64,000 nt of DNA, from positions 1,612,001 to 1,676,000 of the forward strand of contig OZ037836.1 of assembly GCA_964035575.1 (NCBI GenBank), read 5' to 3'. The notes below the pieces were generated by a model. That model was not told where the DNA came from. It ran no database searches and was given only the letters and a program-made list of their open reading frames with translations. The position numbers and the translations under genes are program-made. Source of the stretch: Rhynchopus sp. YZ270_cl-10 (taxonomy: Eukaryota). Of the stretch, positions 1 through 31,799 are shown one piece after another. Position 1 is the first letter of the stretch. Every line of letters begins with the position of its first letter.

Positions 1-49
1 GCACAGACCGGTAGAGATAGCGCTGGATGTAGGTGCGTACAGGCAGATC

Positions 50-3000
50 GTGCTCGCGTACACTCTGCCGAAGCAGTTCCCTTTGGACAAGTGTGGACAA
101 GGCGTGAAGAATGCACAAAAGGCGTTTGCGAGCAAGGAGCTGCAGTGGGGGGCGCTTCAACACCCTCAGGATAGGTGGATACAGTGGAACAAGTGGGCAG
201 AGGACTTCTTGCTGCAGGCGTGCGAAGGCGAGATTGAGGGCCCGACGAAGGCGTATTGCGGAAGAGGCAAAACGTTTGACCCGAAGCCGAAGCACCGGAC
301 TGCGAAGCAGAGCAAGGAAGGGGACGCTCTGACAGTGAGCCAGAGAAGGCTGACGAAGAACGTGGGCAGGCTGGAAGAATGTCGGCTGTGGTACGTGAGG
401 AGCAACGGTGGTGTGCCGCCACATGACGTGTGCAATTGTTGGAGCAAGGCGCGGAAGGAACTGCGTGTTCTGCTGGACGACGACTCACTGCAACAGGATA
501 TGCCTAGCGAGGAGGCTTTGGTGGATCTGTGCAGAGCCGTGCGAGTGAAGGTGTCAACGCTTGCGGACCGAGTGAAGCGGAAGCGACTGGAGGACTGGCG
601 GCAGCGCCTACGGGATGCATGGCACAATGCTCCCAAGGCGATCTTCAAATACTGCAAGGACGAACAGTACAGGAAGATGACTGCCCTGAAGAACGAGGAT
701 GGGAAGTTCACCGCCAACGCTGAGGAGATGGACACCCTCCTGCATGAGGCGTGGATGCCGATTCTTCGCCGATATGCGGAAAAGCCAGAGCCCGACTGGG
801 GTGCGTTTAGGGAGAAGTTTACAGAAGACATCGCAGGCAAGGGGCAAGCGATGCAGATGGACAGGCTGACGGGGAAGGAGTTGCAGCAAACTCTGGGGAG
901 GATGAAGACACAAACTTCTGCTGGGGTGGAGGGTTGGCGCATGGTAGAGCTGAAGGCGCTTCCTCTGGTGCTGCTCGACAGGCTGGCAGATGTGTTTGAT
1001 GCGATTGAGTGTACGGGGGAGTGGCCGCCTTCTTTGATGAGAGCACTCATTGCGCTCATCCCCAAAGGGGAAGACGACACCCCGCTGAAGCAGCGACCTA
1101 TCACGATCACTTCGTGTATCTACAGACTGTGGGCGGCAGCGAGGTTGCGAAGGCTGATAAAGTGGCAGGAAAGCTGGATTGGTGAGCAACAGCACGGCTT
1201 CAGAGCAGGACACAGCACTGCACACCTGTACTGGCATCTGTCGCTCAAGCTGGAGAAGGCGGTACTGTCGGGTGACGACACAGACCAGGTATGGGGCTTC
1301 ACGATCGACTACGCCAAATGTTTCGATCGTGTACCTCATGAGATTGTGCTATCGCTGGCGGAGGAGTGGGGCGCGCACTGGCGTATTCTTGGACCACTGA
1401 GGGCTGCGTACACTGCCATGGAACGCCGCTTCAAGTTGGGAGACGTAGGTGTGGGAGGCACCTTTCGTACGACAAATGGTATCCTGCAAGGATGCCCACT
1501 TTCTGTCGTGCTGTTGAACGCGCTGATGGCGGTGTGGGGATCTGCAGTGACGAGAAGGACCGGAGCAATCGCCATGGGGTACGCTGACGACGTGTATGCT
1601 GTGGCGAACACGGAAGCGGAGGTGCATGGTGCTGCGAGGGTGACGAAGGAGTTTATCACTGCTGCGGACATGGAGGTCAAGGCAGAGAAGTGCGTAGGGT
1701 TTACCTCGAAGGAGGGAACAAAGACGAAGTTTGGACTTGGCGACGGGCTCTTCCCCGACAAGAAGCAGTTCGGGGCGGTTGGAGCAGACATTTTGGCTGG
1801 AAAGGGGAACTTCGGGCCCATCGCGCGTGAGCGTGCGGTTACTGCGCACCGTGTGTTTACGAGGGTTTCGAGTGTGCCTTTATCCTTCACTGAGAAGGCA
1901 CTTATTGGCGCAAGGGGACCAATGATGGCAGCGTTGCATGGGTGCGAAGTGACAGACTTCTCAAAGCAGACCATAGAGACGCTGAGGCAAGGGGCAGCAC
2001 TGGCAGTCTGGGGGCAGGGCAGGAAGCAGCGCACGCTGAACATTGTGTGGCATGTGTTATCTCCGGTTGGGATTGATGCGCCAGCGGAGATTGTGCAGAG
2101 GAGGATGGCGGCCTTTCTCCGACTGACAGAAGATGACGGCATGCGGAGAGAAGCAGAAGACGTGTGGAGGCTGGCACATGACCGAAGAGCGGAGCGGGAG
2201 GTGAGGCGGCGTGACAGGGCTTCAGATCTGGCACGTCTCCGGCGCGAGAACCCTGGGGTTGCCAACCCAAGGGTTACTGAAGTGCACAAGAAGGGTGTGA
2301 TAGAGTTGTTGTGGGACGACCTGGAGCGATACGGATGGCGGTGGAGCAGCTTCGACTTCTGGACCACACACATCGGGTTGAGGGTGCACGTTCGTCTGTG
2401 GGACAAGGGCAAATGGCTGCATGAGCTGAGAGAGGGCATCCGTGCACACGCGTACCGCCTGACAGTGACGACGAGGCCGTCGATGCAGGGCATTGAGGGA
2501 GGTGTGGATCGCCAGGCGACGAACGCAGTGTGGAAGGACCGCACGACCGACAGATACCTGGCGGGCGCGATACGCGGAGCCTTGTCGGGCTCTCAGTTGG
2601 TGGGGGTGCAGCTGCTGAGGAACAAGGAGGTGGAGACTTCGTTGTGCCGATACTGTGGTGAGGCGATAGAGGACCGGAGACACGCTTGGTGGTGGTGCCC
2701 GCAGTGGGACGAAATTCGTGGAGAGGACATCGGAAAACTCCGGGTTTTGCTCAAAGACGCACCCCCGTGCTTCTTGGACTTTGGCCTGGTGCCGACGATA
2801 TTCTTGCAGGAGCTGAGTGTTGCGGAGAGAGAGCAGACGGTGCGTCGTGTGCAACTGATGCTGGTCAGCATCGCGCTGGCAAGGCAGAAGTACGACGTGG
2901 AACATGGGTTTTCGCAGAAGAAGAAGAAGCAAGCGGTGGTGGGCCAATCCCTTTTTCCTTGGGGCTGGAATCCTCAGGAGGGTGCAGTGCTTGAGAGCTA

Positions 3001-4051
3001 CAACCCGCTGGAGAACGTACTGTGGGGGAGCAAGTACATGAAGAAGAGTCCACGCTGGACGGAAGACCACTTCTGGGCGCTGAAGGCATGGCTCGCTGCA
3101 TTGCGTTGGCCTGATGGCACAACGCCCCCCATCACGCAGCTCGAGCTCATGCTGGACTTTGAGATCTTCTCGGGGTTGGACGTACCGGGTGAGACGGTGT
3201 TGAAGAGGGCCGAATCTTTTGGTGCCATGATGCGGACGGCGAAAACTATGGCGCATGGAAGGGACGTATGGAAAGGAGTGGAGAAGAGGGAGGTGCACCA
3301 CTTACAGGAACTGGGTGCGGGGATCATGACGGGGTATTCTGTGCGACCTGTGCTGACGCATGCGGCGGGGGTTGAAGGATACCTGAAGGAGTTGCAGGAG
3401 AAGGCGACGTCGCGGAGAGCACTCTCCCGACAAAAGGAAAAGACGAAGGCGAGGTGGGGTGACGACGCGGATGTGGCTCATACTTCCACTCCGGAAGAAC
3501 GCTCAGCAAAGAACGAACGCTGGAAGGAAGCGAAGGAAGAGCAGAAGCAGGCAGAGGAGGTGCGTAGTAGAGCTGCGATAGCTGCAGTTGCGGCAGAGCA
3601 GATTCGACGACAGGAGGCACGCAGGCGGCAGACACCGGCTGTGCGTGTGGACGTAAGGAGGAAGGTGGGGGCCATGCGGGTGTGTGACATACACACCAAG
3701 ATGCGATGCGGGGACTGCGAGCACAACAACATCTCCATCACGGCGTGTTGTGCGACGCACCATTGTGATGAGCTTATTTTGGGTGACTGTGTGGAGGCGC
3801 GTGAGGCGTGTGAGGTGCATAACTTCTCGATGTGCGGACAGTGTGCGGGTGCGGGGAACGTGTCGATGAAGCAGTGCTGTCAGAAGCACCACAACTGTGT
3901 GGCCCACGGGAGGGGTGCTTGCGGTGCATGTGTGCAGGCGGGACGGAAGAGGAAGAAGGACGGATTGCCGATGCTGGCGTCTCCTCAGGCCTGTTGCGGG
4001 AAAGGGCACCACGACACGTCCCAGGGGCGTCTCGGGTTTGCCCCGCGATAA
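50..4051 (+). CDS. ORF2 of non-LTR retrotransposon (partial): end of APE region, reverse transcriptase, CCHC finger, C-terminal Cys/His repeats
   Basis: RT motifs RPITIT, QHGFR, DYAKCFD, GILQGCPLS, YADD; CRYC...H...C zinc finger. The frame is open from the window start, so the listed GTG is not a real start. Confidence 0.95.
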   Translation: MLAYTLPKQFPLDKCGQGVKNAQKAFASKELQWGALQHPQDRWIQWNKWAEDFLLQACEGEIEGPTKAYCGRGKTFDPKPKHRTAKQSKEGDALTVSQRRLTKNVGRLEECRLWYVRSNGGVPPHDVCNCWSKARKELRVLLDDDSLQQDMPSEEALVDLCRAVRVKVSTLADRVKRKRLEDWRQRLRDAWHNAPKAIFKYCKDEQYRKMTALKNEDGKFTANAEEMDTLLHEAWMPILRRYAEKPEPDWGAFREKFTEDIAGKGQAMQMDRLTGKELQQTLGRMKTQTSAGVEGWRMVELKALPLVLLDRLADVFDAIECTGEWPPSLMRALIALIPKGEDDTPLKQRPITITSCIYRLWAAARLRRLIKWQESWIGEQQHGFRAGHSTAHLYWHLSLKLEKAVLSGDDTDQVWGFTIDYAKCFDRVPHEIVLSLAEEWGAHWRILGPLRAAYTAMERRFKLGDVGVGGTFRTTNGILQGCPLSVVLLNALMAVWGSAVTRRTGAIAMGYADDVYAVANTEAEVHGAARVTKEFITAADMEVKAEKCVGFTSKEGTKTKFGLGDGLFPDKKQFGAVGADILAGKGNFGPIARERAVTAHRVFTRVSSVPLSFTEKALIGARGPMMAALHGCEVTDFSKQTIETLRQGAALAVWGQGRKQRTLNIVWHVLSPVGIDAPAEIVQRRMAAFLRLTEDDGMRREAEDVWRLAHDRRAEREVRRRDRASDLARLRRENPGVANPRVTEVHKKGVIELLWDDLERYGWRWSSFDFWTTHIGLRVHVRLWDKGKWLHELREGIRAHAYRLTVTTRPSMQGIEGGVDRQATNAVWKDRTTDRYLAGAIRGALSGSQLVGVQLLRNKEVETSLCRYCGEAIEDRRHAWWWCPQWDEIRGEDIGKLRVLLKDAPPCFLDFGLVPTIFLQELSVAEREQTVRRVQLMLVSIALARQKYDVEHGFSQKKKKQAVVGQSLFPWGWNPQEGAVLESYNPLENVLWGSKYMKKSPRWTEDHFWALKAWLAALRWPDGTTPPITQLELMLDFEIFSGLDVPGETVLKRAESFGAMMRTAKTMAHGRDVWKGVEKREVHHLQELGAGIMTGYSVRPVLTHAAGVEGYLKELQEKATSRRALSRQKEKTKARWGDDADVAHTSTPEERSAKNERWKEAKEEQKQAEEVRSRAAIAAVAAEQIRRQEARRRQTPAVRVDVRRKVGAMRVCDIHTKMRCGDCEHNNISITACCATHHCDELILGDCVEAREACEVHNFSMCGQCAGAGNVSMKQCCQKHHNCVAHGRGACGACVQAGRKRKKDGLPMLASPQACCGKGHHDTSQGRLGFAPR

Positions 4052-4062
4052 CGAAGGTGGTC

Positions 4063-4117
4063 ACGTGGCGCCTTTCTCACCTCTCAGTTCATCTGAGAAG
4101 GTGGGGATGGGTCACGT
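4063..4117 (+). other. 3' UTR stem-loop of retrotransposon copy 1
   Basis: ACGTGGC/GTCACGT, CACC/GGTG and TCTCAG/CTGAGA arms around a TTCAT loop; identical at 30264-30318. Confidence 0.75.
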
Positions 4118-4130
4118 CAACAAGTTTAAT

Positions 4131-4476: not shown

Positions 4477-4791
4477 CGTCCCTTCCATGCGGCATCGTTT
4501 TCGCCGTCCGCATCATGGCACCAAAAGATTCGGCCCTCTTCAACACCGTCTCACCCGGTACGTCCAACCCCGAGAAGATCTCAAAGTCCAGCATGAGCTC
4601 GAGCTGCGTGATGGGGGGCGTTGTGCCATCAGGCCAACGCAATGCAGCGAGCCATGCCTTCAGCGCCCAGAAGTGGTCTTCCGTCCAGCGAGGACTCTTC
4701 TTCATGTGCTGACTTCCCCACAGTACGTTCTTCAGTGGGTTGTGGCACTCCAATACCGCACCTTCCGGAGGATTCCAACCCCAAGGAAAAA
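4477..4791 (-). mobile_element. Inverted, diverged fragment of retrotransposon ORF2
   Basis: Reverse complement matches ~2952-3267 (NPLKNVLWGSQHMKKSPRWTEDHFWALKAWLAALRWP...). Confidence 0.9.
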
Positions 4792-5350
4792 TGATGGTGA
4801 TTGGGGGGGACTGAGGGGGGAGGACGCGCTTTGCTGTGCTTGGGGTGCTTGGGGTGCTTGGGGTGTGGAGTCAACTCTTGTGCTGTGCTGGAGGGGGTGT
4901 GGGAGGTGGAGGTGCACAGTGTTGTGAGTGTGGGGGGTTTGGGTGTGGCGCTTCCCTCGATCGTTTTGTGGTGATGATGGGAGGGGAAGCTGTGTCTGGC
5001 GGTGGGGTGCTTTCGTGCATTTGTCTGGCACCTCAGCTTGTCTGTGGTTGCAGCACGAGAGCACCTTTGGCGTTCTTCCTTGCGTGGGGTGGGTGGAGAC
5101 AGCGTGGAGGCTGTGCGGGTTTCTTGTGCAGAACGGGGCAGGTAACGGTGCGTGAGAGGAGTGTACCGACCCTCCCCCGTGAAATTGTCCCCCCTGGGGG
5201 GAAAAGTGAGGGGGGGTCAATATCTCGTACGGCAAAAAGGGGGGACAATTTCTCGTACTGTAGGGGGGTGGCCGTTTTGGTGTGAAGAAGGGAGAGCAAA
5301 GGTTGTCCCCGCGACTCCCTTGAAATTGTCCGTCGGGGTGAAATACCGGT

Positions 5351-18373: not shown

Positions 18374-20586
18374 ATCATGTTTTCAACAAAAAAAAAAAAA
18401 ACACAAAAAGACAAACAACAAATAAGTCAGCCCTCTGAGTGACCTCTCCCCTCTTTTTACTTTTGCATTATGAAACACATTTCCTCGCTCTACGCACACA
18501 CTATGTCTGATACATTACCCGCAACACCATCGCTGTCGGAAAGGTTGGTGTCCTCTGGATTGGTGTTGACTTTCCAGTGGACACTCCCGTTGGTGTGCAT
18601 GAAGGGACAGCAAAGGGTTGTCTTGAGGACGGGAACGTTGTGTCGCTGTACAACGTCAGCGCCAACGTCTCAGGCGAAGCTCTGAGGACCACGGGGGTGA
18701 AGATGTGTACACATTCCGGAGGCTCCACTGGAGCAACTCTGATCTCGGGATTGACAGCAACGTCCGCACAGTACACCCCGATACAGGTACGGCAGCGACC
18801 CCCTCCTCAGCTTGAAACTACCCTGGTTCACAAAAGGCTGACAATCGGATCGCACGGCTTCCCCACAAACGTCGCTGTGAACACTACAAAGCCTGTTAAG
18901 GGTAAACCCATCCCTGTCCAGACGAGCCGCTCATGGGAGAGGCCCCTGTGAAGATGACCGTACGACGCGAAGGGGGTGGCTGTGGTGACGAAGGTGACTG
19001 ACCTTGAGAAGACCTCACTTCTGGACAGCGAAATGACGTGGAGGAGTGTGCACGCTGGGTCAGGGCTGGAGGAGCAGGCTGTCGTACGACTCGAACCTGG
19101 AGATAAATGTTGCCTTTACGACGGTGCCTTGAGTAGCATGCGTTGGATGTTGTCCCGAACGCACCTAAGTGTATGGTAGGCATGGACACGATAGGTGCTG
19201 TGTTCAAGCTCATTGAGTGTTGGTCTGCCGACATCGGAAACAACATGTTTTGGTGTTGCCAGCCAGACAGTGGTGTGCTCTTGAAGCTCCAAGGCCCTCG
19301 CGATGCCTGGAGCAACGACTCTACTCCAAGGGTTATACGACATTCACGTTCATCCCTGATTCCTGGGGTGGGGTTGGTGCAGTGGCAGGGAAGCACGCTG
19401 TCTCGATCACCCCGACCCCCATGATGACCCTCAGGACTGCGTACGGCAGGGAGCACAGCAAACGTTCTCTTCCTTTCAATCCTCACAGCGAAGCCTCTGG
19501 ACATGGCAAAACACTGTGGGGTGCGCAACTTCGAGGTCGGCTAGGGCACGCCATGCTGTTCCCCTGAAGCCGTCCGTGCAAAGGGTGCCAGCGTGGTGAC
19601 ACTCCACCAAAGAATTCCAGGGGCCGTCAATGGTGAACCCTGACATCAACTGCCCATTAGGCACGGGAGGTGCGGAGTGTCCGCGACCTACGTTGCGGCT
19701 TCTTCCAGGTGGTGGTCCCGGTGGAAGTGCGTCGCTACTTCCGTTTCCTCGACGACGCTGGTGTGTGGTGGGAGTGGACGAGGTTGCAGATGGGCCATTC
19801 CTGTGGCCCATCTGAGGGGGTTGGGGTGGATGTGATGGGGAAACGTTGGCTTCTTTGCCTTTGTCTCTTCTAATGAAGTTGGAAAGAACAAGAAAATAGA
19901 TTGAAACAAAAAAAAAAAAAAAAACGTTATTTTCCTTGTCCTCTTTTATCCACGCATCTCTGTGGAGTTCTCACCTTTTGTTTTCCAGCCGGGATCTGAG
20001 CTAATGACCCTGTGTCTGCAATGATGCTGTTCATTTGATTGATGAGAGGAAGCGGAGGGTGCAGAGGGTGGAGGGCATATCAGATGCAAACCTCGCATTG
20101 GGGTGCACACACAGCACAGTCCTTGCAGTAATGTTCATTTCGTTCTCCCAGATCAGCGGCGCAAGGATTAGCTCCACATAGCCTCACCCACGGGGAAGAG
20201 GACCCCAGCCAGAACCACCGTACGAACGGAGGAACTGCAGAAAACGCCAATACCAACGTTTTCGAGCATTTGTTCAGGGTTGAAACCCTGCAAAATGGGG
20301 TATTTCTTGTCTTGTCCTCCACACCCTACCACCACACACAGAGATCAGAATACAAAACCACAACAAACAAATGGACGTGCACTTCGAGGATTTCAGAGCG
20401 AATCAGCACACAGTCGAGGTGGGTGCAGATGACACAGTGGAGGGCTTGCGGCGGAAGGTGGCGACTGCAATGGGGTTGCCTGAAGACGGCTTTTGCATGA
20501 GTTTCGGTGGCGAACCGATGGGAGAAGGAGCGGACATGACGCAGCTGAGTGCTGGTGACACAATCATCCTCACGAAGACGAAGAAG

Positions 20587-22239
20587 GGGGCAATTAACGT
20601 CTGACCAACCGCCAAGTGGGGCCCCTGGACGCCGTGTTCGCATGGTACTGAGTCAGCGTGGGCGGCCGCCTCTCCAATGATGGATTCGCTCGGGACCGGA
20701 GGAGGAACAAGCCGATGTGGGGACCCTGGTTATTAACACAACATCACAGTCAATTTCGGGCAGATCACCAGCTTATGTAGGCTACGCAAACCCCTTCGAG
20801 GGGTTTCAAGAATCTGTTACCTGTGCGGTGACTGGGAGTGTGTTGATGCCGATGAGGGGATCCCAGGTACAAGAAGGAAGCGTTGCCGGTGTCTCTACTG
20901 GTGACGGAATATTGTTGCTGTTCCTGTGTTGTCGTTTGACCGCATGGGAACGTTTTGTTGCTTTGTTGGTGCGTACACTGTATGTGAAACAACTGTGGAT
21001 CAGCAGGTACGTGCTCTTGTGTATTCAGTGTGGTGTGTTGTAGTTTTGTTCAGTTCAGTTCAGTTTTCATCTTTTTGCCGTAGTAGAATTCTTGTGTTAT
21101 GTGTTTAACCTCAGGCTGTGTACACCGTAGTGAAACATCTGTGGATCTGCAGGTGCGTGCTCTGTCGTTAATTCAGTGTGGCATGTTGTAGTTTTTGGTC
21201 TGTTTTTACGTTTTTATACGTTAGTAGAAGAAGGGATCTGCGAACATTCATTCGCAGGTGGGTACAAGTTGTCGCCGTGGCATTCAGCTACGGTGCAGAA
21301 GAAGTAGTAGGGCAGACCAACGTCTGTGCTAGAAGGAAGAGGTTAAGCTTTCAGGGTGTATGCACTGTACGTGAAACAACTGTGGATCTGCAGGTACATG
21401 CTCTGCTGTTTTTCCATTGTGTTTATTTTTGTTCTATTTTCACGTGCTTTGGTACGTTGACAGATGAAGGAGTTGTCGTCGTGGCGTCCAGCTACGGTGC
21501 AGAAGAGGCAGTAGGGCAGACCAACTACCAACTGTAGGGTCTGTGCTACGCGGAAAGGCTGGTACTTGAGTTTGTTCACTGTTTGTTGTAACTCCTTCCC
21601 TGCCGGCACTCCCTTACTTGTAAGGAAGAAGTTACAACTTTCTCTGTACAAATCAGGGGGATTTTGTGTGGCCGTCTGCCATATTGTGTGGACATGTTAG
21701 CTGACGGTGCTGCTGTTTCTTTTACAGCAACACTGCTCTTGCTGTTGATTTTTCTTTTTCATTTTTACTTTTATTGTTTCGAAAAACGGAGGTTAATGTT
21801 TCCGGTTCGGGCCTGGACTCCGACCCCTACTTTTGCTGACGCGTACGAACGGTCGTGAACCGTCCCCACTCTCTTACGGTGCGGGCAACGCGGTAACGGT
21901 GGCTAGGAAGAAGGGAATCACCCAGAACCACTAATCGCAGCCTGACAGGCACCGAACCTCGGGTGAGAATCCCCTCCTGTCAGCCCTGTTCGAAGTACCT
22001 ATTTTGTTTGACCTTCTTGTCTTTTTGACTTTTTGACTTTTCTTTTATGCTATCGAACAGTGCACCCCCAGTAGTGTTGGCATGCATACCTGGGCTGGTC
22101 GGCTTGCCGATCTGTTCCAGGGACTGGGGTAAAGTGCCATTAAACGCAGCAGGTACCTGTGTTTTTTGGGGGTCTTTTGGTTGGGAAGGTCACAGAAAGA
22201 AGGCCCGGCCTGCCAGAGACCGTTAAAACGGACTACCAC
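20587..22239. mobile_element. 1653-bp non-coding insertion with perfect 19-bp TSD (probable non-autonomous retroposon)
   Basis: CCTCACGAAGACGAAGAAG at 20568-20586 and 22240-22258. No TIRs and no credible long ORF; internal imperfect repeats at ~20970, ~21120, ~21360 and ~21270, ~21470. Confidence 0.85.
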
Positions 22240-22572
22240 CCTCACGAAGACGAAGAAGTACGAAGCCTTTGCAGAGCTTCATGCGTTGGGTGTGACCGAC
22301 ATTACAGCCGAGAAGTTGGAGAGTGTGGAGGATGCTGAGGTGGCGTGTTTGCTTCTGCAGGCGGAGGTTGCGACTATCATTCCTGATGGGTTCTTGAGAG
22401 AGTCATCGTTGACGAGACTTGATCTCAGTGCTGTGTCCTTTGTGACACAGATTGGAGACAACTTCCTCGAGGAGTGCACCTCGTTGACAAGTGTCGACCT
22501 CTCTGGGTTGAGCAATGTGACGGTGATTGGCGATTGCTTTCTTTCCGACTGCAACTCTTTAACCACTCTGGA

Positions 22573-22702
22573 GGGATACACACAACGTACACAAAAAGAA
22601 AGAATATAAACAATGTTTTCGTACATGGTGTCGAAGTCACGTCCAGCCTCCACGCGGAGTATCCCGGGCAACGATCCGTCACACGGATCGGCCAAGTGGA
22701 CG
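22573..22702 (+). ncRNA. HDV-like self-cleaving ribozyme at the element 5' end
   Basis: P1 GGGAUAC(22573-79)/GUAUCCC(22659-65); P2 CGUCCA(22640-45)/UGGACG(22697-702); P3 GCC/GGA (one mismatch); L3 UCCACGC; GG-GCAAC; P4 GAUCCGU-CAC-ACGGAUC; J4/2 GGCCAAG with putative catalytic C22692. Matches the HDV ribozyme layout element by element. Confidence 0.85.
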
Positions 22703-25477
22703 CCACACCCGCCGGCGCCTGTGTGCTGCAGGTCGTGGAACTGCTATTGCAGTGACGAGGTGACGGCGGCGGCGGAGCAGGCGCACTGGACTGAGGGGCT
22801 ACGGCAGCCCGCCTACCCGGGGGCAGGCGGCATGAAGCGCAGTGCAGGGGAGGAGAGGAAGGATCCCGATGTCTTCATCGGAGTAGTGACGGGCGAGAAG
22901 GTGCGGGACACGACGGGGCTGTGTGCGCTGGCGCGTGATGCGACGGAGGAGGAACCAGGAACGCACTGGGAAGTAACCCGCCGCCTGGCAAACATCACCA
23001 AGGCAGAAGCCGCGTACGAGGGCATCCTGCTCGGGCTTCAAGGGGTGGCCGACGGGTCGTACCCGAAGGGCACCCACGCGCGCGTGTGGGTCACGCACTT
23101 GGTGGTCTGGAGGCAGGTGGCTGAGGGGCACGCCTGCGACTCGTCGTTGCTGAAGCCGAGGCTGGAGAAGGTGAAGGCGCTGCTGGGCGAGTTGAAGAAG
23201 AGGGGGATAAGGGTATCGCTGCAGCACTGCGCGAAGGCGGGGAAGGGGATGAAGGAGGCAGAGAGCAACGCCCAGCTGGTTGCAGGAGGGGGGTACGCCG
23301 CAAGGGGATGCAGGACGGAGACGCTGGCAGCTGCCGTGCAGCCAGGTGTCAAGGGACACCTGGAAAGATGGGGGTTGCGATGGGAGGAATGTGGGGGCAA
23401 GGGGGACTGTCTGTTCCGGTCGGTGGCGTGGTCTGTGGAGCGGTCCCCGAATGGTCACGCAGGCTTCCGCAGGCTCGCAGTTGAGGTGATGAAGGAGCAG
23501 AAGGCACACTACAGCCCATTTGTGGACGAGGGGTGCATTGATGCATACCTGGCAGGCATGGCGCAGCTGGGGACATGGGGGGACCATTTGTGTCTCCATG
23601 CGATCGCCAAGGTGATGAAGGTCCGCATTGTTGTGCTTGACGTTGGACCGGAGAACGCGCTACGGGCTACGCTGATCGACGGGCAGTCCGACGGGCAGCT
23701 GGCAGAAGGAACTCCGGAGAAGGCTAACCTCACCTTCACGGAGTCTGACGTAGTCCTGGGGTTCGAGGGGGTACACTACGGTGCTGTGGAATCGGCAGGG
23801 TTGAAGGTGGGGGAGGAACTTCTGTGCGCAGTGGGACAACCGCAACTGCACGTACCGGCTACAGCTGTGAAGGGGAAGAAGAAGGCGACGGCGGTGACCC
23901 AGAGCGCAGCGGAGGATGCACTGAACCTGGCGCCCCAGGGATGGAAAATACCGGTGTGGGATGCAGTGCCCAGCAATGTGGAAGGGGTGACGCAGGTGGC
24001 GGCAGTTGCGTGGAAGGCGAGCGAACTTCTGCAGGGGTTACAGTTGCTGCACCAACTTCCGCAGATGGTGATTGTGTCCCGTTCGAAGTGTACGGGTGCA
24101 GCGCGCACGAAGAAGGCGAAGGTGGCGGTGAAGACGGAGCGGGGAGCAAAGGTGGAAGAAGTGTGGCTGTCGTCCATGACAACTAACTTGGACGACGTGG
24201 TGAAGCCGGTGGAGAGCACGTTCTCGAGCAAGCTGATTACGCTGATGGGCAGAACGATGTTGCTCCAGGGGGAGGGGCGCACAAAGGGAGAGCAACGCAT
24301 GCGTCGGTGGTACGGGTTGCAGGGGGTGCGGTGTGGACGCGGCTTGGAGAGAGGAGGATGGATGGAGATGTCTGTGGACGTGACGGAGGACATGGTGTGC
24401 GCCATGCTGAGGAGAAGCGGACGGGAAGGGGTGTTTGTGCGGCACCTCTTCCAGGCAAAGGAGTACGGGGACTGTGGGTTGTTGTGGAAGGCGGAACCGC
24501 TGGAGTCTGCTCTGGCACGGCTGGACCTTGTTGAGGAGAACATGGAGGATAGCGTGCGCGGACTCGCCGTAGGGGAAGGGGGCTACGCGGTGCGGGTGAT
24601 GAAGGGGGACTTGGAGGCTGCGAAGAGGCTTCTTGTGCAGGAGGACGTCGTCGTGCAGGGACACAGGTACGAGATTGGGGGAATTCCGGCGAACACGTCG
24701 GTCCAGCTGTTGTGTGAGGGGCTGGTGAGGGAGGCGAGCTGGACGGTGAAGGTGCTGTCGCGAGGGCACAAGTGGACGGTTACGTCGGATGTGCCGTGCC
24801 CGAGCACAGAAGGGGTGCTGGAGGTGGGTGGATTGGTGTTGACGGTGTGTGCGGTGAAGGAAGGGCGTCGTGTGCAGAAGGTGGGTGCGAATCCGTGGGG
24901 TTTCCCTCTGGCGCAGTTCCCAGTACCGAGGCAAGGAGCAGCAGAGAGCGGCGCTGGCACGTGGGCGGCTAAGGCGAGGGGATACGCACCACCTGCAGCT
25001 CGACCCCACCCTGCAACAGGGGCACCGGCGGCTCCGGCACCTCCCGCAGCTTCATCAGCAGCGCAGGACGAGATAGAGATGATGAAGAAGGAGATGAAGG
25101 AATTGCGGGAGATGATGAAGGGCGTCATGGAGCAGCAGAAGGAGATGTTGGAGGCACAGAAGCGGATGATGGGACAGCCGCAGCAGTCGGCACCAGTCGC
25201 GCAACCGCCGCAGCCTCTCGACATGGAACAGCTCAGAGCAGAATGTGCTGAGATGAAGGAGACGGTGCAGCAGTGCAAGGACCAGAACGTGCAGCTGGCA
25301 GCGGAGAGCAAGCGGCTCACGGAGGAGAACGAGGCGCTGAAGAAGGCAGCTCGCGAGGCCAAGGACAAGGCCAGGGATGCTCAAGATCGTGGCGGTGAGG
25401 AGAAGAAGAAAGATACGACGACGGACGAGAACAGCCGCCCCCGCGACACGGACAATAACCGAGAAAGGTCGTATTAA
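22613..25477 (+). CDS. Retrotransposon ORF1: degenerate RNase H-like domain + OTU cysteine protease + C-terminal coiled coil
   Basis: TKAEAAYEGILLGL...VTHLVVWRQV...LKPRLEKVKALL...AESNA resembles RNase HI/RVT_3 with the acidic catalytic residues replaced. OTU motifs GKGDCLFRS (Cys266), TWG and VHY (His388). The start might instead be the ATG of MKRSAG (22832). Confidence 0.85.
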   Translation: MFSYMVSKSRPASTRSIPGNDPSHGSAKWTPHPPAPVCCRSWNCYCSDEVTAAAEQAHWTEGLRQPAYPGAGGMKRSAGEERKDPDVFIGVVTGEKVRDTTGLCALARDATEEEPGTHWEVTRRLANITKAEAAYEGILLGLQGVADGSYPKGTHARVWVTHLVVWRQVAEGHACDSSLLKPRLEKVKALLGELKKRGIRVSLQHCAKAGKGMKEAESNAQLVAGGGYAARGCRTETLAAAVQPGVKGHLERWGLRWEECGGKGDCLFRSVAWSVERSPNGHAGFRRLAVEVMKEQKAHYSPFVDEGCIDAYLAGMAQLGTWGDHLCLHAIAKVMKVRIVVLDVGPENALRATLIDGQSDGQLAEGTPEKANLTFTESDVVLGFEGVHYGAVESAGLKVGEELLCAVGQPQLHVPATAVKGKKKATAVTQSAAEDALNLAPQGWKIPVWDAVPSNVEGVTQVAAVAWKASELLQGLQLLHQLPQMVIVSRSKCTGAARTKKAKVAVKTERGAKVEEVWLSSMTTNLDDVVKPVESTFSSKLITLMGRTMLLQGEGRTKGEQRMRRWYGLQGVRCGRGLERGGWMEMSVDVTEDMVCAMLRRSGREGVFVRHLFQAKEYGDCGLLWKAEPLESALARLDLVEENMEDSVRGLAVGEGGYAVRVMKGDLEAAKRLLVQEDVVVQGHRYEIGGIPANTSVQLLCEGLVREASWTVKVLSRGHKWTVTSDVPCPSTEGVLEVGGLVLTVCAVKEGRRVQKVGANPWGFPLAQFPVPRQGAAESGAGTWAAKARGYAPPAARPHPATGAPAAPAPPAASSAAQDEIEMMKKEMKELREMMKGVMEQQKEMLEAQKRMMGQPQQSAPVAQPPQPLDMEQLRAECAEMKETVQQCKDQNVQLAAESKRLTEENEALKKAAREAKDKARDAQDRGGEEKKKDTTTDENSRPRDTDNNRERSY

Positions 25478-25485
25478 TCACGACC

Positions 25486-28400
25486 GTGGGCCTTGCCCCA
25501 CTAAAGATAGTGTGCAGCAATGTGACGGCGCTGCAGACAGGCGGGAGCTCTCTGCTGAAGGTTGCGGAGGATGCTCACGTTGTTCTGGTACAAGAGACAA
25601 AGTGCACCGTGACGACGCAGAAGCGCCTCTCCATCGAGTACCGCGAGCAGGGTTGGCAGGTGGTGTGGGGTAAGGAGTTGCCGGAATGGAGGTCGGCCGA
25701 AGAAGCGAAATCTGGTGGTGTTGCGATTCTGGTGCAAGAGGGAATACCTGTGCTCACGAGCCCGCCCTCCTCAACCTTGGAAAAGAACCTCTGGGACTCA
25801 ACGCGATGGGTGAAGGCGAAGGTGGCGTACGGCAAAGGCAACGAGTGGATCGACGTGACCTCCGTCTACGCGCCGTCGGCGGACCCGGAGGCTAGGGAGA
25901 AAATACTTGGCGAGGTGATGGAGGCTGCTGCAGAGCTTGGTGACATTCCTGGGGTGATTGGTGGGGACTTCAACGCAGGTCCCGGGAAATCAGGTGTGCT
26001 GGCTGCTACGCTAGACACAGGATGGTGGAAGGACACTGCCGAAGAGCACGCAAGGGTGCTTGGGACGACCCCGGAGAACACCTACTTCTCAGTGAAGGAG
26101 GGCAAGGAGATCCGCAAGAGGCTCGATTACGTTCTGCTGAACCGAGCTGCGTGCACAGGGCTGTCGTCTGTGAAGGTTGTCCACGACTCTGGGCTCCCGC
26201 AGCACAGACCGGTAGAGATAGCGCTGGATGTAGGTGCGTACAGGCAGATCGTGCTCGCGTACACTCTGCCGAAGCAGTTCCCTTTGGAGAAGTGTGGACA
26301 GGGTGTGAAGACGGCACAAAAGGCGTTTGCGAACAAGGAGCTGCAGTGGGGGGCGCTTCAACACCCTCAGGATAGGTGGATCCAGTGGAACAAGTGGGCA
26401 GAGGACTTCTTGCTGCAGGCGTGCGAAGGCGAGATTGAGGGCCCGACGAAGGCGTATTGCGGTAGAGGCAGAACGTTCGACCCCACACCGAAGCACCGGA
26501 CTGCGAAGCAGAGCAAGGAAGGGGACGCTCTGACGGTGAGCCAGAGAAGGCTGACGAAGAACGTGGGCAGGCTGGAAGAATGTCGACTGTGGTACGTGAG
26601 GAGCAACGGTGGTGTGCCGCCACATGACGTGTGCAATTGTTGGAGCAAGGCGCGGAAGGAACTGCGTGTTCTGCTGGACGACGACTCACTGCAACAGGAT
26701 ATGCCTAGCGAGGAGGCTTTGGTGGATCTGTGCAGAGCCGTGCGAGTGAAGGTGTCAACGCTTGCGGACCGAGTGAAGCGGAAGCGACTGGAGGACTGGC
26801 GGCAGCGCCTACGGGATGCATGGCACAATGCTCCCAAGGCGATCTTCAAATACTGCAAGGACGAACAGTACAGGAAGATGACTGCCCTGAAGAACGAGGA
26901 TGGGAAGTTCACCGCCAACGCTGAGGAGATGGACACCCTCCTGCATGAGGCGTGGATGCCGATTCTTCGCCGATATGCGGAAAAGCCAGAGCCCGACTGG
27001 GGTGCGTTCAGGGAGAAGTTTGCAGAAGACATCGCAGGCAAGGGACAAGCGATGCAGATGGACAGGCTGACGGGGAAGGAGTTGCAGCAAACTCTGGGGA
27101 GGATGAAGACACAAACTTCTGCTGGGGTGGAGGGTTGGCGCATGGCAGAGCTGAAGGCGCTTCCTCTGGTGCTGCTCGACAGGCTGGCAGATGTGTTTGA
27201 TGCGATTGAGTGTACGGGAGAGTGGCCGCCTTCTTTGATGAGAGCACTCATTGCGCTCATCCCCAAAGGGGAAGACGACACTCCGCTGAAGCAGCGACCA
27301 ATCACGATTACTTCGTGTGTGTACAGACTGTGGGCGGCAGCGAGGTTGCGAAGGCTGATAAAGTGGCAGGAAAGCTGGATTGGTGAGCAACAGCACGGCT
27401 TCAGAGCAGGACACAGCACTGCCCACCTGTACTGGCATTTGTCACTCAAACTGGAGAAGGCGGTGCTGTCGGGTGACGACACAGACCAGGTATGGGGCTT
27501 CACGATTGACTACGCCAAATGTTTCGATCGTGTACCTCATGAGATTGTGCTATCGCTGGCGGAGGAGTGGGGCGCGCACTGGCGCATTCTTGGACCACTG
27601 AGGGCGGCGTACACTGCCATGGAACGCCGCTTCAAGTTGGGAGACGTAGGTGTGGGAGGCGCTTTCCGTACGACAAATGGTATCCTGCAAGGATGCCCGC
27701 TTTCTGTCGTGCTGTTGAACGCGCTGATGGCGGTGTGGGGATCTGCAGTGACGAGAAGGACGGGAGCAATCGCCATGGGGTACGCTGACGACGTGTATGC
27801 TGTGGCGAACACGGAAGCGGAGGTGCATGGTGCTGCGAGGGTGACGAAGGAGTTTATCACTGCTGCGGACATGGAGGTCAAGGCAGAGAAGTGCGTAGGA
27901 TTTACCTCGAAGGAGGGAACAAAGACGAAGTTTGGACTTGGCGACGGGTTCTTCCCCGACAAGAAGCAGTTCGGGGCGGTTGGAGCAGACATTTTGGCAG
28001 GAAAGGGGAACTTCGGGCCCATCGCGCGTGAGCGTGCGGTTACTGCGCACCGTGTATTTACGAGGGTTTCGAGTGTGCCATTATCCTTCACTGAGAAGGC
28101 ACTTATTGGCGCAAGGGGACCAATGATGGCAGCGTTGCATGGGTGCGAAGTGACAGACTTCTCGAAGCAGACGATAGAGACGCTGAGGCAAGGGGCAGCA
28201 CTGGCAGTCTGGGGGCAGGGCAGGAAGCAGCGCACGCTGAACATTGTGTGGCATGTGTTATCTCCGGTTGGGATTGATGCGCCAGCGGAGATTGTGCAGA
28301 GGAGGATGGCGGCCTTTCTCCGACTGACAGAAGATGACGGCATGCGGAGAGAAGCAGAAGAAGTGTGGAGGCTGGCACATGACCGAAGAGCGGAGCGGGA

Positions 28401-30252
28401 GGTGAGGCGGCGTGACAGGGCTTCAGAGCTGGCACGTCTCCGGCGTGAGAACCCTGGGGTTGCCAACCCAAGGGTAACTGAAGTGCACAAGAAGGGTGTG
28501 ATAGAGTTGTTGTGGGACGACCTGGAGCGATACGGATGGCGGTGGAGCAGCTTCGACTTCTGGACCACACACATCGGGTTGAGGGTGCACGTTCGTCTGT
28601 GGGACAAGGGCAAATGGCTGCATGAGCTGAGAGAGGGCATCCGTGCACACGCGTACCGCCTGACAGTGACGACAAGGCCGTCGATGCAGGGCATTGAGGG
28701 AGGTGTGGATCGCCAGGCGACGAACGCAGTGTGGAAGGACCGCACGACCGACAGATACCTGGCGGGCGCGATACGCGGAGCCTTGTCGGGCTCTCAGTTG
28801 GTGGGGGTGCAGCTGCTGAGGAACAAGGAGGTGGAGACTTCGTTGTGCCGATACTGTGGTGAGGCGATAGAGGACCGGAGACACGCTTGGTGGTGGTGCC
28901 CGCAGTGGGACGAAATTCGTGGAGAGGACATCGGAAAACTCCGGGTTTTGCTCAAAGACGCACCCCCGTGCTTCTTGGACTTTGGCCTGGTGCCGACGAT
29001 ATTCTTGCAGGAGCTGAGTGTTGCGGAGAGAGAGCAGACTGTGCGACGTGTGCAACTGATGCTGGTCAACATCGCGCTGGCAAGGCAGAAGTACGACGTC
29101 GAACATGGGTTTTCGCAGAAGAAGAAGAAGCAGGCGGTGGTGGGCCAATCCCTTTTTCCTTGGGGCTGGAATCCTCCGGAGGGTGCAGTGCTTGAGAGCT
29201 ACAACCCGCTGGAGAACGTACTGTGGGGGAGCAAGCACATGAAGAAGAGTCCTCGCTGGACGGAAGACCACTTCTGGGCGCTGAAGGCATGGCTCGCTGC
29301 ATTGCGTTGGCCTGATGGCACAACGCCCCCCATCACGCAGCTCGAGCTCATGCTGGACTTTGAGATCTTCTCGGGGTTGGACGTACCGGGTGAGACGGTG
29401 TTGAAGAGGGCAGAATCTTTTGGTGCCATGATGCGGACGGCGAAAACGATGGCGCATGGAAGGGACGTATGGAAAGGAGTGGAGAAGAGGGAGGTGCACC
29501 ACTTACAGGAACTGGGTGCGGGGATTATGACGGGGTATTCTGTGCGACCTGTGCTGACGCATGCGGCGGGGGTTGAAGGGTACCTGAAGGAGTTGCAGGA
29601 GAAGGCGACGTCGCGGAGAGCACTCTCCCGACAAAAAGAAAAGACGAAGGCGAGGTGGGGTGACGACGCGGTTGTAGCTCACACTTCCACTCCGGAAGAA
29701 CGCTCAGCAAAGAGCGAACGCTGGAAGGAAGCGAAGGAAGAGCAGAAGCAGGCAGAGGAGGTGCGTAAGAGAGCTGCGATAGCTGCAGTTGCGGCAGAGC
29801 AGACTCGACGGCAGGAGGCACGCAGGCGGCAGACACCGGCTGTGCGTGTGGACGTAAGGAGGAAGGTGGGTACCATGCGGGTGTGTGACATACACACCAA
29901 GATGCGATGCGGGGACTGCGAGCACAACAACATCCCCATCACGGCGTGCTGTGCGACGCACCATTGTGATGAGCTTATTTTGGGTGACTGTGTGGAGGCG
30001 CGTGAGGCGTGTGAGGTGCATAACTTCTCGATGTGCGGACAGTGTGCGGGTGCGGGGAACGTGTCGATGAAGCAGTGCTGTCAGAAGCACCACAACTGTG
30101 TGGCTCACGGGAGGGGTGCTTGCGGTGCATGTGTGCAGGCGGGACGGAAGAGGAAGAAGGACGGATTGCCGATGCTGGCGTCTCCTCAGGTCTGTTGCGG
30201 GAAAGGGCACCACGACACGTCCCAGGGACGTCTCGGGTTTGCCCCGCGATAA
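25486..30252 (+). CDS. Retrotransposon ORF2: APE endonuclease, RT, CCHC finger, 3x Cys/His module
   Basis: APE motifs SNV, VQETK, GGVAILV, SVYAP, GDFNA, RLDYVL, QHRPV; RT YADD at 27781. The frame is open from 25459 and has no ATG before the APE domain. Confidence 0.95.
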   Translation: MGLAPLKIVCSNVTALQTGGSSLLKVAEDAHVVLVQETKCTVTTQKRLSIEYREQGWQVVWGKELPEWRSAEEAKSGGVAILVQEGIPVLTSPPSSTLEKNLWDSTRWVKAKVAYGKGNEWIDVTSVYAPSADPEAREKILGEVMEAAAELGDIPGVIGGDFNAGPGKSGVLAATLDTGWWKDTAEEHARVLGTTPENTYFSVKEGKEIRKRLDYVLLNRAACTGLSSVKVVHDSGLPQHRPVEIALDVGAYRQIVLAYTLPKQFPLEKCGQGVKTAQKAFANKELQWGALQHPQDRWIQWNKWAEDFLLQACEGEIEGPTKAYCGRGRTFDPTPKHRTAKQSKEGDALTVSQRRLTKNVGRLEECRLWYVRSNGGVPPHDVCNCWSKARKELRVLLDDDSLQQDMPSEEALVDLCRAVRVKVSTLADRVKRKRLEDWRQRLRDAWHNAPKAIFKYCKDEQYRKMTALKNEDGKFTANAEEMDTLLHEAWMPILRRYAEKPEPDWGAFREKFAEDIAGKGQAMQMDRLTGKELQQTLGRMKTQTSAGVEGWRMAELKALPLVLLDRLADVFDAIECTGEWPPSLMRALIALIPKGEDDTPLKQRPITITSCVYRLWAAARLRRLIKWQESWIGEQQHGFRAGHSTAHLYWHLSLKLEKAVLSGDDTDQVWGFTIDYAKCFDRVPHEIVLSLAEEWGAHWRILGPLRAAYTAMERRFKLGDVGVGGAFRTTNGILQGCPLSVVLLNALMAVWGSAVTRRTGAIAMGYADDVYAVANTEAEVHGAARVTKEFITAADMEVKAEKCVGFTSKEGTKTKFGLGDGFFPDKKQFGAVGADILAGKGNFGPIARERAVTAHRVFTRVSSVPLSFTEKALIGARGPMMAALHGCEVTDFSKQTIETLRQGAALAVWGQGRKQRTLNIVWHVLSPVGIDAPAEIVQRRMAAFLRLTEDDGMRREAEEVWRLAHDRRAEREVRRRDRASELARLRRENPGVANPRVTEVHKKGVIELLWDDLERYGWRWSSFDFWTTHIGLRVHVRLWDKGKWLHELREGIRAHAYRLTVTTRPSMQGIEGGVDRQATNAVWKDRTTDRYLAGAIRGALSGSQLVGVQLLRNKEVETSLCRYCGEAIEDRRHAWWWCPQWDEIRGEDIGKLRVLLKDAPPCFLDFGLVPTIFLQELSVAEREQTVRRVQLMLVNIALARQKYDVEHGFSQKKKKQAVVGQSLFPWGWNPPEGAVLESYNPLENVLWGSKHMKKSPRWTEDHFWALKAWLAALRWPDGTTPPITQLELMLDFEIFSGLDVPGETVLKRAESFGAMMRTAKTMAHGRDVWKGVEKREVHHLQELGAGIMTGYSVRPVLTHAAGVEGYLKELQEKATSRRALSRQKEKTKARWGDDAVVAHTSTPEERSAKSERWKEAKEEQKQAEEVRKRAAIAAVAAEQTRRQEARRRQTPAVRVDVRRKVGTMRVCDIHTKMRCGDCEHNNIPITACCATHHCDELILGDCVEAREACEVHNFSMCGQCAGAGNVSMKQCCQKHHNCVAHGRGACGACVQAGRKRKKDGLPMLASPQVCCGKGHHDTSQGRLGFAPR

Positions 30253-30263
30253 CGAAGGTGGTC

Positions 30264-30318
30264 ACGTGGCGCCTTTCTCACCTCTCAGTTCATCTGAGAA
30301 GGTGGGGATGGGTCACGT
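30264..30318 (+). other. 3' UTR stem-loop of retrotransposon copy 2
   Basis: Same hairpin as 4063-4117; no poly(A) tail follows. Confidence 0.75.
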
Positions 30319-31161
30319 CAACAAGTTTAAGCTCTTTAACCGCCCTGGATCTCACACCACTCAACAACGTGACGGCGATTAGCTATGGCTTTCTCAACCG
30401 CTGCCAAGGCTTAACCACCCTGGATCTGACACCACTCAACAACGTGACGGTGATTGGCAATAGCTTTCTTGAGAGCTGCTACTCTTTAACCACCCTGGAT
30501 CTTACACCACTCAACAACGTTACGAGGATTGAATTTAACTTTCTTTACGGCTGCACCTCTTTAACCAGCCTGGATCTCACACCACTGAGCAAGGTTGAGT
30601 ATGTGGGTTCGGGTTTTGCTAATAACTGCACTTCGTTGACGAGTATTTACCTTTCCGGCTGCAGCAGTGCTGTGTCCAACGAAGTGAGGAATAGCGAGGA
30701 GCTGAGGCATCTTGTGGTCGAAGCACGTCCGAAACGAAGCAGAGACGAATCCCCCGAGCAAGCACACAAACGACAGAGACACGCACAATGACGACGTGGT
30801 GTGTTGGTGGGAGGGACTGGAAGAAGGGTACGAAGGGAGGTGGAAGGGGCCGGTAGGTACTGCCTACTCTACTCGTCTGCACAAACTTTACAAAACAAAA
30901 AAAATAGTGGAGCACACAGGATAAAGTCTGCCTAGAACTAGGGTCGTGCTATTCGCATAACTCGTTAGGCGATTGGGTGTATCTGGCTTACAGCAACCAA
31001 AACAAAAGAATTGGCAGTGCAGACTGCACAACTGTGGCAACACAACCGAGGCAACTAAAGGGGGGGGAGGGATAATTGTAGTGGGGGATAACTGTAGAAT
31101 GGCGGATAAAATAAAAAATGTCGCCAGTTTGTTCTTCTCAAAAAATGGGGGATAGTTGTAG

Positions 31162-31799
31162 CAGGGTATTAGGGTGGTTAAAAAAACTGGTTTTGAAAAC
31201 CAGTTTTTCCAAAAACTGGTTTTCAAAAAAAAAAAAAAAAAACAGAGAAATCTGGAGGGGAAAAAAAAACCGACACTTTTCACCAGGCCTTTCTGTAAAT
31301 GTCGTCCCCAGATTAGGGCGGACTCGATTTTTTTCCCCGCATTTTTCCCCCGCCTGGTAGAACCGTGGTTGAACCACGGGAGTGCCTTTGGGAAATGGCT
31401 GTTCCTTGATTTTTTTTTGCCTGCGGCGCCATTTTTCATTTTTTGCTCCGCAAAAAAGGGTTCGTTTGAGTGGCTCTGTGGTGTAAAAAGCTAGATTTTT
31501 ACACCGTACCCTCAAAAATTTTCGCCTGAGGCGCCATTTTATATTATTGTTTTGCTCCGCAAAAAAATATGCAGTCCCTATGTTCCCAATGTCTACCCTG
31601 GGTCAGCAGCGCCGAAAAATATTTTGAAATCTGGATTCCTGGATAAGACACTGACCCCACCCCCGAAAAACCCGAAAAGGGTGACTGTGTCCGTCAACGG
31701 TGGAGGTTTTCGCCAGAAACACTAGTTTTTGCCGCCCAGGAGAGAAAACCAGAAAAACCAGTTTTTTCCGGGATTTTGGATTTTCACCCTAATACCCTG
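31162..31799. mobile_element. MITE, TIR CAGGGTATTAGGGTG, 7-bp flanking direct repeat GTTGTAG
   Basis: Perfect 15-bp TIRs; GTTGTAG at 31155-31161 and 31800-31806. The interior is similar to ~43665-44005 and ~17900-18010. Confidence 0.8.

Follow-up and report, generated by a model that had tools for sequence, protein, structure and literature searches.

What does a protease of the ubiquitin system do in a retrotransposon, and is it connected with the genes in which the element lands? The question is raised by a stretch of 64,000 nt from Rhynchopus sp. YZ270_cl-10 (contig OZ037836.1, positions 1,612,001 to 1,676,000; hereafter the window). In it, a long interspersed nuclear element (LINE) that encodes an OTU protease domain in its first open reading frame (ORF1) is inserted in a gene for a protein with a ubiquitin-like domain and leucine-rich repeats (a Ubl-LRR gene). 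A sequence-only reading of the window had joined the two observations in an arms race, in which the element would disrupt Ubl-LRR genes and counter ubiquitin-dependent restriction, and had offered the processing of an ORF1-ORF2 polyprotein as an alternative. We tentatively prefer another answer, to which we give slightly less than an even chance: the OTU domain serves the element itself, as an active Gly-Gly protease that cuts the ORF1 protein (ORF1p) and deubiquitinates the element's proteins, as PRO of turnip yellow mosaic virus (TYMV) does, and the hits in Ubl-LRR genes reflect a separate choice of target.

The OTU domain of ORF1

The domain in ORF1 is a real member of the OTU protease family, on the grounds of its profile score, its fold and its Cys, His and aromatic residues. 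The three OTU motifs that had been read from the sequence are all present at the residues given (Cys266, encoded at 23408-23410; Trp322, at 23576-23578; His388, at 23774-23776), and Pfam profile PF02338 (OTU) scores 48.4 bits against ORF1 (E=1.7e-12), well above the curated cut-off of 23.3. The top sequence match in the PDB is OTUD3 (E=1.7e-8). A fold prediction for residues 250-395 had been proposed as a check, and an OTU fold was indeed predicted. The AlphaFold2 model, made with an alignment of 118 rows, has a block-mean predicted local distance difference test (pLDDT) of at least 90 across most of the domain, and OTUD3 was found again with this model, both by Foldseek (E=2.2e-11) and as the top match of VIA-align (Z 19.8, root-mean-square deviation 2.8, 138 aligned). 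In structure comparison the model also matches OTUD1, yeast Otu2 and the nairoviral OTUs. It supersedes a low-confidence model of residues 80-400 that was folded from the single sequence (mean pLDDT 49).

The catalytic centre

Cys266, His388 and Tyr389 are kept in all 20 aligned copies of two ORF1 subfamilies (a 21st cluster member, a 38-aa fragment, is omitted from the alignment), so that the conservation of Cys and His across element copies, a second check that had been suggested, was borne out. The three residues are also invariant in ten of ten aligned ORF1s with identities of 21-98%, six of which are only 21-28% identical to the ORF1 of the window. Likewise, the Cys, the His and the Tyr next to it are retained in 9/9 family members, and in two metagenome loci that are described below (L009 and L011).

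The acids that usually accompany this pair are missing. Lys263 occupies the position three residues before the Cys (Cys-3), where 120 of 125 other OTUs have Asp; this loss had been recognised correctly from the sequence. A second loss had gone unremarked: the usual third catalytic residue of OTUs stands two residues after the His (His+2; PMC7396840), and in the window this is Gly390. Asp, Asn or Glu at His+2, as in the canonical triad of the OTUD and OTUB type, was found in none of the nine family members, versus 81 of 103 other OTUs. An acid seven residues before the Cys (Cys-7; Glu259 in the window) is present in all nine, versus 55 of 125 other OTUs. The OTUs of L009 and L011 display the same pattern, with an acid at Cys-7 and without the usual acid at His+2. 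Among the element OTUs with a canonical triad, a Cys-7 acid was seen in 0 of the 3 compared, yet P0241 has one.

There are precedents for such a centre. In the Legionella enzymes LotC (D17/C24) and LotA OTU2 (D296/C303) Cys-7 is the triad position (PMC10133868), and in PLP2 of equine arteritis virus (EAV) Asn263 is paired with Cys270 (PMC3968130). The acid at His+2 is described as dispensable in some cases (PMC7396840), and TYMV PRO as functioning as a catalytic dyad (PMC3744425). By analogy with LotC, Glu259 likely replaces the lost third catalytic residue. An aromatic residue after the His is given as a mark of proteases that cleave after Gly-Gly (PMC7391069). Protease activity with a specificity for Gly-Gly is thus predicted for the OTU domain, whose Cys-His pair is intact.

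Gly-Gly sites and the proposed function of the protease

Candidate sites for such a protease are found in ORF1p itself. Of 11 element lineages, 8 have a Gly-Gly at 12-45 residues upstream of the catalytic Cys, where 2.3 would be expected from the background of the same proteins, versus 11 of 100 other OTUs (P0045 and P0180, which are too short upstream, are left out of this count). The motif YPGAGG (Table 1) is identical in the window and in the Diplonema papillatum ORF1 P0213/P0211, despite leaders of unequal length; it is similar in P0028 and P0022, and shortened to PGAG in P0023. The enrichment upstream of the OTU suggests self-processing in addition to deubiquitination. Both activities are combined in TYMV PRO and EAV PLP2, OTUs with a non-canonical third residue that cleave their own polyprotein and strip ubiquitin (PMC3968130, PMC3744425).

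We propose that the OTU would cleave ORF1p after Gly73 and after Gly226, and that these cuts would free the leader and a dead RNase H fold from a protein made up of the OTU, the central core and the coiled coil. The same domain would strip ubiquitin from the element's proteins, and this deubiquitination would shield the ribonucleoprotein (RNP) from the proteasome. The Ubl-LRR genes would be hit by way of the endonuclease, which would recognise a fixed register of the multicopy 75-nt LRR unit.

Several observations weigh against this proposal. The window of 12-45 residues was picked after the sequences had been seen, and the lineages are related, so that the Gly-Gly count is a lead and not proof; it falls to 7/11 when a paralog is swapped in, P0022, L009 and L011 are without an upstream Gly-Gly, and downstream of the OTU Gly-Gly occurs at about background (5/14). 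Ubiquitin has a hydrophobic P4 residue, which is missing in GAGG, and GAGG may be a structural turn. Besides the OTU, L009 and L011 carry a 2A-like motif before the endonuclease, and therefore the protease is unneeded to free the Pol protein there. Among the ten aligned ORF1s all 19 invariant columns are inside the OTU, a count that is biased toward this domain as the sole region covered by all ten. An acid at Cys-7 is also carried by 44% of the other OTUs, and the role given to Glu259 is read from sequence. Finally, PMC3968130 describes most human and nairoviral OTUs as leaving linear ubiquitin chains uncut.

A rival explanation is a protease that would act as a deubiquitinase (DUB) only, and free the RNP or host proteins at the insertion site of ubiquitin, in escape from the proteasome or in DNA-repair signalling; the Gly-Gly pairs would then be flexible linkers. 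The closest folds are those of the cellular DUBs OTUD3, OTUD1 and Otu2, the gatekeeper Tyr389 is invariant, and OTU and 2A-like motifs occur together in L009 and L011. The same role has been proposed for the OTU/Ulp1 of Ginger1 (PMC2836005) and for the Josephin domain of Dualen (as cited in PMC8557442). However, a function as DUB only leaves both the upstream Gly-Gly of the eight lineages and the conserved YPGAGG unexplained, and the two viral OTUs known as polyprotein cutters are likewise non-canonical at the third position (PMC3968130, PMC3744425). We regard it as possible, if rather unlikely, and by analogy with the viral enzymes the dual role of self-processing and deubiquitination would be the most likely of the two.

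Insertion into Ubl-LRR genes

Six Ubl-LRR genes are present in the window, four with intact ORFs and two disrupted, and 24 LRR units were found with a relaxed pattern. The insertion of the LINE in a Ubl-LRR gene, as originally read, was confirmed by an 18-nt target duplication (16/18 identical). Ubl-LRR genes are the site of the full-length copy and also of the long copy that is truncated at the window edge, and a preference for such genes is supported. The insertion point, which had gone unremarked, lies in the LRR-coding repeats and not in the Ubl-coding part. Both 3' junctions of the window (2/2) enter the LRR unit at one register of the 75-nt unit. In other contigs, one of 4,681 nt from run X1 spans the 5' junction with 34 differences, and runs X5 and X6 contain at least three further junction types in which the element 3' end enters LRR units (with 22-25 letters on the short side). 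In at least one contig of run X3, the DNA beyond the 3' end does not resemble the LRR flank. The junctions covered thus show a fixed insertion position in a multigene family, with at least one exception.

A similar situation is known from the retrotransposon hot spot (RHS) genes of trypanosomes, a multigene family in which a fixed Ingi/RIME insertion site gives rise to split pseudogenes (PMC7563717). The two cases differ in that the site described here is a tandem LRR-coding unit, several of which are present per gene, and in that another insert uses a second site at the Ubl end.

This other insert, of 1.65 kb (20587-22239), lies in this host gene where the Ubl-coding part ends, and has a perfect 19-nt target duplication and internal repeats. 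It did not match any of 16 element proteins; probably it is another, non-autonomous element that has a site of its own in the Ubl-LRR family. In P0050, a Ubl of the host type (55-63% identical to those of the window) and a related ORF1 with an OTU are fused in one frame, and the point of fusion is the position that the 1.65-kb insert occupies. The fusion may be an insertion that was read through by the gene caller.

Do the hits reflect a conflict between element and host? In that case Ubl-LRR proteins would restrict the element by Ubl-like signalling, and the element would both disrupt their genes and bind or counter their product with its OTU. The location of both long copies, the disruption of two of the six genes, the second insert at the Ubl end, the junction between Ubl and OTU-bearing ORF1 in P0050 and the three or more junction types of runs X5 and X6 all agree with it. 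Yet the element is inserted in the LRR-coding repeat, and the host Ubl ends in ILTKTK(K/T/L), without the Gly-Gly that ends the fold of a conjugatable ubiquitin-like modifier (0/5 window genes). Therefore, an OTU with the aromatic gatekeeper Tyr389 is not expected to cut after the host Ubl. A prediction of the complex between the OTU and the host Ubl, run without alignments and with the controls not folded, gave a score of 0.01 and a mark of 0.34, and counts on neither side. The OTU also occurs outside the Ubl-LRR context: in P0215, from D. papillatum, the gene model combines an ORF1 of the OTU family with a patched-like protein, and L009 is flanked by ORFs that, read by eye, resemble an integrase-type element. 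The contig of run X3 with its flank unlike LRRs points the same way, and the tests made here gave no sign that Ubl-LRR proteins are defensive, four of the six genes having intact ORFs. We consider the arms race improbable and the link between protease and target unsupported. Hits in these genes are likely due to the endonuclease register in the LRR unit rather than to an action of the protease on the gene product.

Structure of the element

The element has the characteristics of a retrotransposon without long terminal repeats (a non-LTR retrotransposon) and with an apurinic/apyrimidinic (AP) endonuclease (APE type): in ORF2 the endonuclease is followed by a reverse transcriptase (RT), ORF1 lies upstream, and there is a target-site duplication. 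The coordinates are collected in Table 1. Self-comparison of the window showed no terminal repeats of the element. A poly(A) or simple-repeat 3' tail is common, though not universal, in APE-type non-LTR elements; here it is absent, and both copies stop a few bases past the stem-loop of the 3' untranslated region (UTR), which is likely the recognition site of the RT. Just the last 60-90 nt of the element (30242-30330) are shared by contigs of run X2, with unrelated DNA upstream, and these contigs are possibly short elements that borrow the 3' stem-loop. A scan of positions 20000-31500 with Rfam gave 0 matches and no ribozyme family.

Table 1. Coordinates of the element, its parts and its insertion site in the window
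Feature	Position	Strand	Remarks
Full-length APE-RT non-LTR retrotransposon, 7,759 bp (7.76 kb)	22573..30331	+	no terminal repeats, no poly(A) tail
ORF1, 954 aa	22613..25477	+	leader, RNase H-like fold, OTU, central core, coiled coil
YPGAGG motif, aa 68-73	22814..22831	+	boundary of leader and RNase H; candidate Gly-Gly cleavage site
Archaeal-type RNase H fold, about aa 84-222	22862..23278	+	predicted inactive, three of four catalytic acids replaced
LVAGG, aa 222-226	23276..23290	+	Gly-Gly 40 residues ahead of the catalytic Cys; second candidate cleavage site
OTU domain, aa 249-394	23357..23794	+	Cys266 and His388; Tyr389 as gatekeeper; Glu259 as candidate for the third residue; Lys263 and Gly390 at the sites of Asp and Asp/Asn elsewhere
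ORF2 frame, 1,597 aa stop to stop	25459..30252	+	AP endonuclease, RT, C-terminal Cys/His repeats; likely GTG start at 25486
3' UTR, long stem-loop	30253..30331	+	z = -4.9; 0/200 shuffles as stable
Second element copy, 3' part	1..4130	+	98% identical, truncated by the window edge
Target duplication, left copy, 18 nt	22555..22572	+	inside an LRR-coding unit
Target duplication, right copy, 18 nt	30332..30349	+	16/18 identical to the left copy
Disrupted host Ubl-LRR gene, 5' part	20371..22572	+	itself split by the separate insert 20587-22239
Disrupted host Ubl-LRR gene, 3' part	30332..30791	+	remaining LRR units and C-terminus

The region ahead of the OTU (aa 84-222) was recognised as RNase H-like by Atlas (0.90), by HHalign (91%, E=1e-6 to the intact RNase H of related LINEs) and by structure (Z 9.0 to Halobacterium RNase H1), in a model of which the first 50 residues have a pLDDT under about 50. 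Three of its four catalytic acids are non-acids when it is aligned to the intact domains of related LINEs, and the fold is predicted to be catalytically inactive. For the core of ORF1 (aa 435-760) the Atlas search gave a top score of 0.84, which is a lead only and without a firm fold assignment.

The decayed neighbour suggests a further explanation for the OTU, namely that it is itself weak or inactive and is retained as a ubiquitin-binding or structural module, as the RNase H fold would be. The loss of both usual acids, so widespread in other OTUs, fits this as well. We think it improbable all the same: every family member, like L009 and L011, has kept the Cys, His and Tyr, in contrast to the acids of the RNase H, and the dispensability of the His+2 acid in some cases (PMC7396840) and the dyad of TYMV PRO (PMC3744425) are compatible with activity.

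ORF2 lies in the -1 frame, shares 19 nt with ORF1 and has no ATG ahead of the endonuclease, and in P0206, P0181 and P0241 an OTU with a Gly-Gly upstream stands straight before the endonuclease in one frame. A protease for an ORF1-ORF2 fusion made by -1 frameshifting is nevertheless very improbable here, as ORF1 ends in a stop, none of the six heptamers of the overlap is a slippery site of the canonical kind, the RNA downstream is no more stable than its shuffles (z -1.5) and a GTG in good context (A at -3, G at +4) follows 8 nt past the stop. The polyprotein alternative of the sequence-only reading is thus unlikely for the two ORFs, and self-processing within ORF1 at Gly-Gly is its better version.

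In elements of the Ingi/L1Tc clade there is one ORF, in which a 2A-like peptide precedes the endonuclease (PMC3708506). The element of the window has two ORFs and no NPGP-type (2A-like) motif in ORF2; a scan of 34 related Pol proteins found such motifs in 5. The C-terminus of ORF2 (about 29800-30250) contains three CxxH...CxxC and three CCxxxH motifs, which are common to many diplonemid Pol proteins and have no match in Pfam. They likely form a zinc-binding repeat.

Relatives and spread of the OTU domain

The protein collection contains 15 and 6 members of two ORF1 subfamilies and 33 members of ORF2, and therefore the element family has likely expanded recently. The subfamilies, represented by P0001 and P0002, are about 65-75% identical at aa 81-560 and 92-98% identical at aa 561-954, a pattern that suggests a recombinant 5' half. 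The closest relatives with a name at NCBI are LINE proteins of D. papillatum (DIPPA_28703, DIPPA_10929 and others; 33-35% identity for ORF2, 27% for ORF1), and the closest ORF2 cluster (51%) contains transcripts of Rhynchopus euleeides. Both point to a diplonemid as the likely host, presumably a marine one.

In a search among 1.84 billion representatives, the same OTU was found in the ORF1 relatives P0022, P0023, P0024 (from D. papillatum; 11 cluster members), P0030, P0045 and P0050, and in P0081 OTU, APE and RT are combined in a single ORF. Other Pol proteins, from D. papillatum and from the ENA, have an OTU with the canonical triad immediately before the endonuclease. A profile search of metagenome contigs with related Pol proteins yielded 16 loci, most of them too short upstream of the endonuclease. 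Two (L009 and L011) have an OTU of the Cys-7 type after the ORF1 core, with RT regions that are merely 21-24% identical. In L009 (1268-10123) a single frame of 2,951 aa encodes tandem repeats ended by seven LSGG motifs, followed by the ORF1 core, the OTU, the 2A-like motif, the endonuclease and the RT; the LSGG ends of the repeats resemble the C-terminus of ubiquitin. In L011 a 2A-like motif stands ahead of the ORF1 core, where L009 has the LSGG repeats. The rule that the OTU replaces 2A before the endonuclease was rejected, since both loci have both. A second, degenerate OTU at the N-terminus of P0206 reached an independent E-value (iE) of 0.53 only and is not claimed.

A tree of the OTU domains (129 columns) sets the Cys-7 type apart from the triad type, with a support of 95 for the Cys-7 group (81 once L009 and L011 were added and one long row was dropped) and 97 for the other; L009 and L011 themselves are unplaced. 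A single origin of all element OTUs is unsupported, as the two types group apart, and by their sequences one capture and two captures are both possible. In the RT tree (37 rows, P0205 dropped), which was built from the search hits alone with no reference Ingi sequence among them, OTU-bearing elements are found on several branches. Because of this spread, and of the differing positions of the domain, the OTU is an old, clade-wide cargo of LINEs that has shifted position within the elements. It is conceivable, although we regard it as doubtful, that protist LINEs of a wide clade have, in a virus-like OTU, a protease and deubiquitinase for Gly-Gly self-cleavage, interchangeable with 2A skipping, and to counter ubiquitin-dependent control, with the family described here targeting Ubl-LRR genes in addition.

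Two gene models with ankyrin repeats, P0027 and P0029, end in a piece of the ORF1 coiled coil (52-55% identity). These ends are fragments of related elements beside another family of repeat proteins.

Comparison with known systems

Transposons carry proteases of the ubiquitin class time after time: Helitrons and Ginger1 have an OTU, NeSL/Utopia and Mutator a Ulp1 and Dualen a Josephin, with roles that are described as proposals. The presence of OTU in transposons and of Ulp1 and Josephin in non-LTR elements is thus already known. In the literature, including the supplements of the D. papillatum genome paper, with Repbase Reports and most subscription journals outside the search, we found no account of an OTU in a LINE or another non-LTR retrotransposon; PMC11943222 was checked and concerns another subject. 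The genome paper of D. papillatum defers a rigorous transposon analysis (PMC10161547), and the Pol and ORF1 proteins of this species, the closest NCBI-named relatives, several of them with an OTU, are annotated solely as hypothetical, Pol or RNase HI proteins.

In Helitron/Helentron and Ginger1 elements the OTU has been proposed to act in ubiquitin-dependent steps of transposition (PMC2836005, PMC11417382). As here, an OTU was captured by a transposable element, but those are DNA transposons, whereas the domain of the window is part of a retrotransposon ORF1 and has a non-canonical catalytic centre. The Ulp1-like protease of NeSL/Utopia and the Josephin-like protease of Dualen (PMC4640811, PMC8557442) resemble the present case as cysteine proteases of the ubiquitin/Ubl class N-terminal to the RT of a non-LTR element. 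They belong to other families, however, and NeSL/Utopia has a restriction-like endonuclease, in contrast to the AP endonuclease and separate ORF1 found here.

TYMV PRO and EAV PLP2 share with the ORF1 domain the OTU fold in a parasite, the non-canonical third residue (EAV has Asn at Cys-7, and TYMV has no such residue) and the dual role that is proposed here. Their activity is demonstrated, whereas that of ORF1 is predicted, and in fold the ORF1 domain resembles OTUD3 (Z 19.8) far more than TYMV PRO (Z 6.4). The Legionella enzymes LotC and LotA OTU2, with a triad of the A20 type, likewise have the acid seven residues before the Cys and not at His+2 (PMC10133868). They are bacterial proteins with an extended helical lobe, and the fold similarity to the LotC entries is modest (Z 6.4-8.4).

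The family is a compact and testable case among APE LINEs: many of its copies are intact, its catalytic residues and self-cleavage sites have been predicted, and it has relatives in a cultured diplonemid. Proteolytic maturation is usually tied to LTR elements and viruses; if the protease does cut ORF1p, it would occur in a LINE. If the protease is a DUB, this would indicate that retrotransposons are under ubiquitin-dependent control in euglenozoans. The target in the LRR unit shows a LINE that uses a repetitive protein-coding family as its landing site.

Other features of the window

Older fragments of the element were found on the minus strand at 52309-52863 (ORF1, 73% DNA identity) and at 4478-4792 (ORF2, 95%). 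They are in the opposite orientation and lie beside Ubl-LRR genes, off the LRR site. An array of 14-nt tandem repeats spans about 850 nt (42128-42980).

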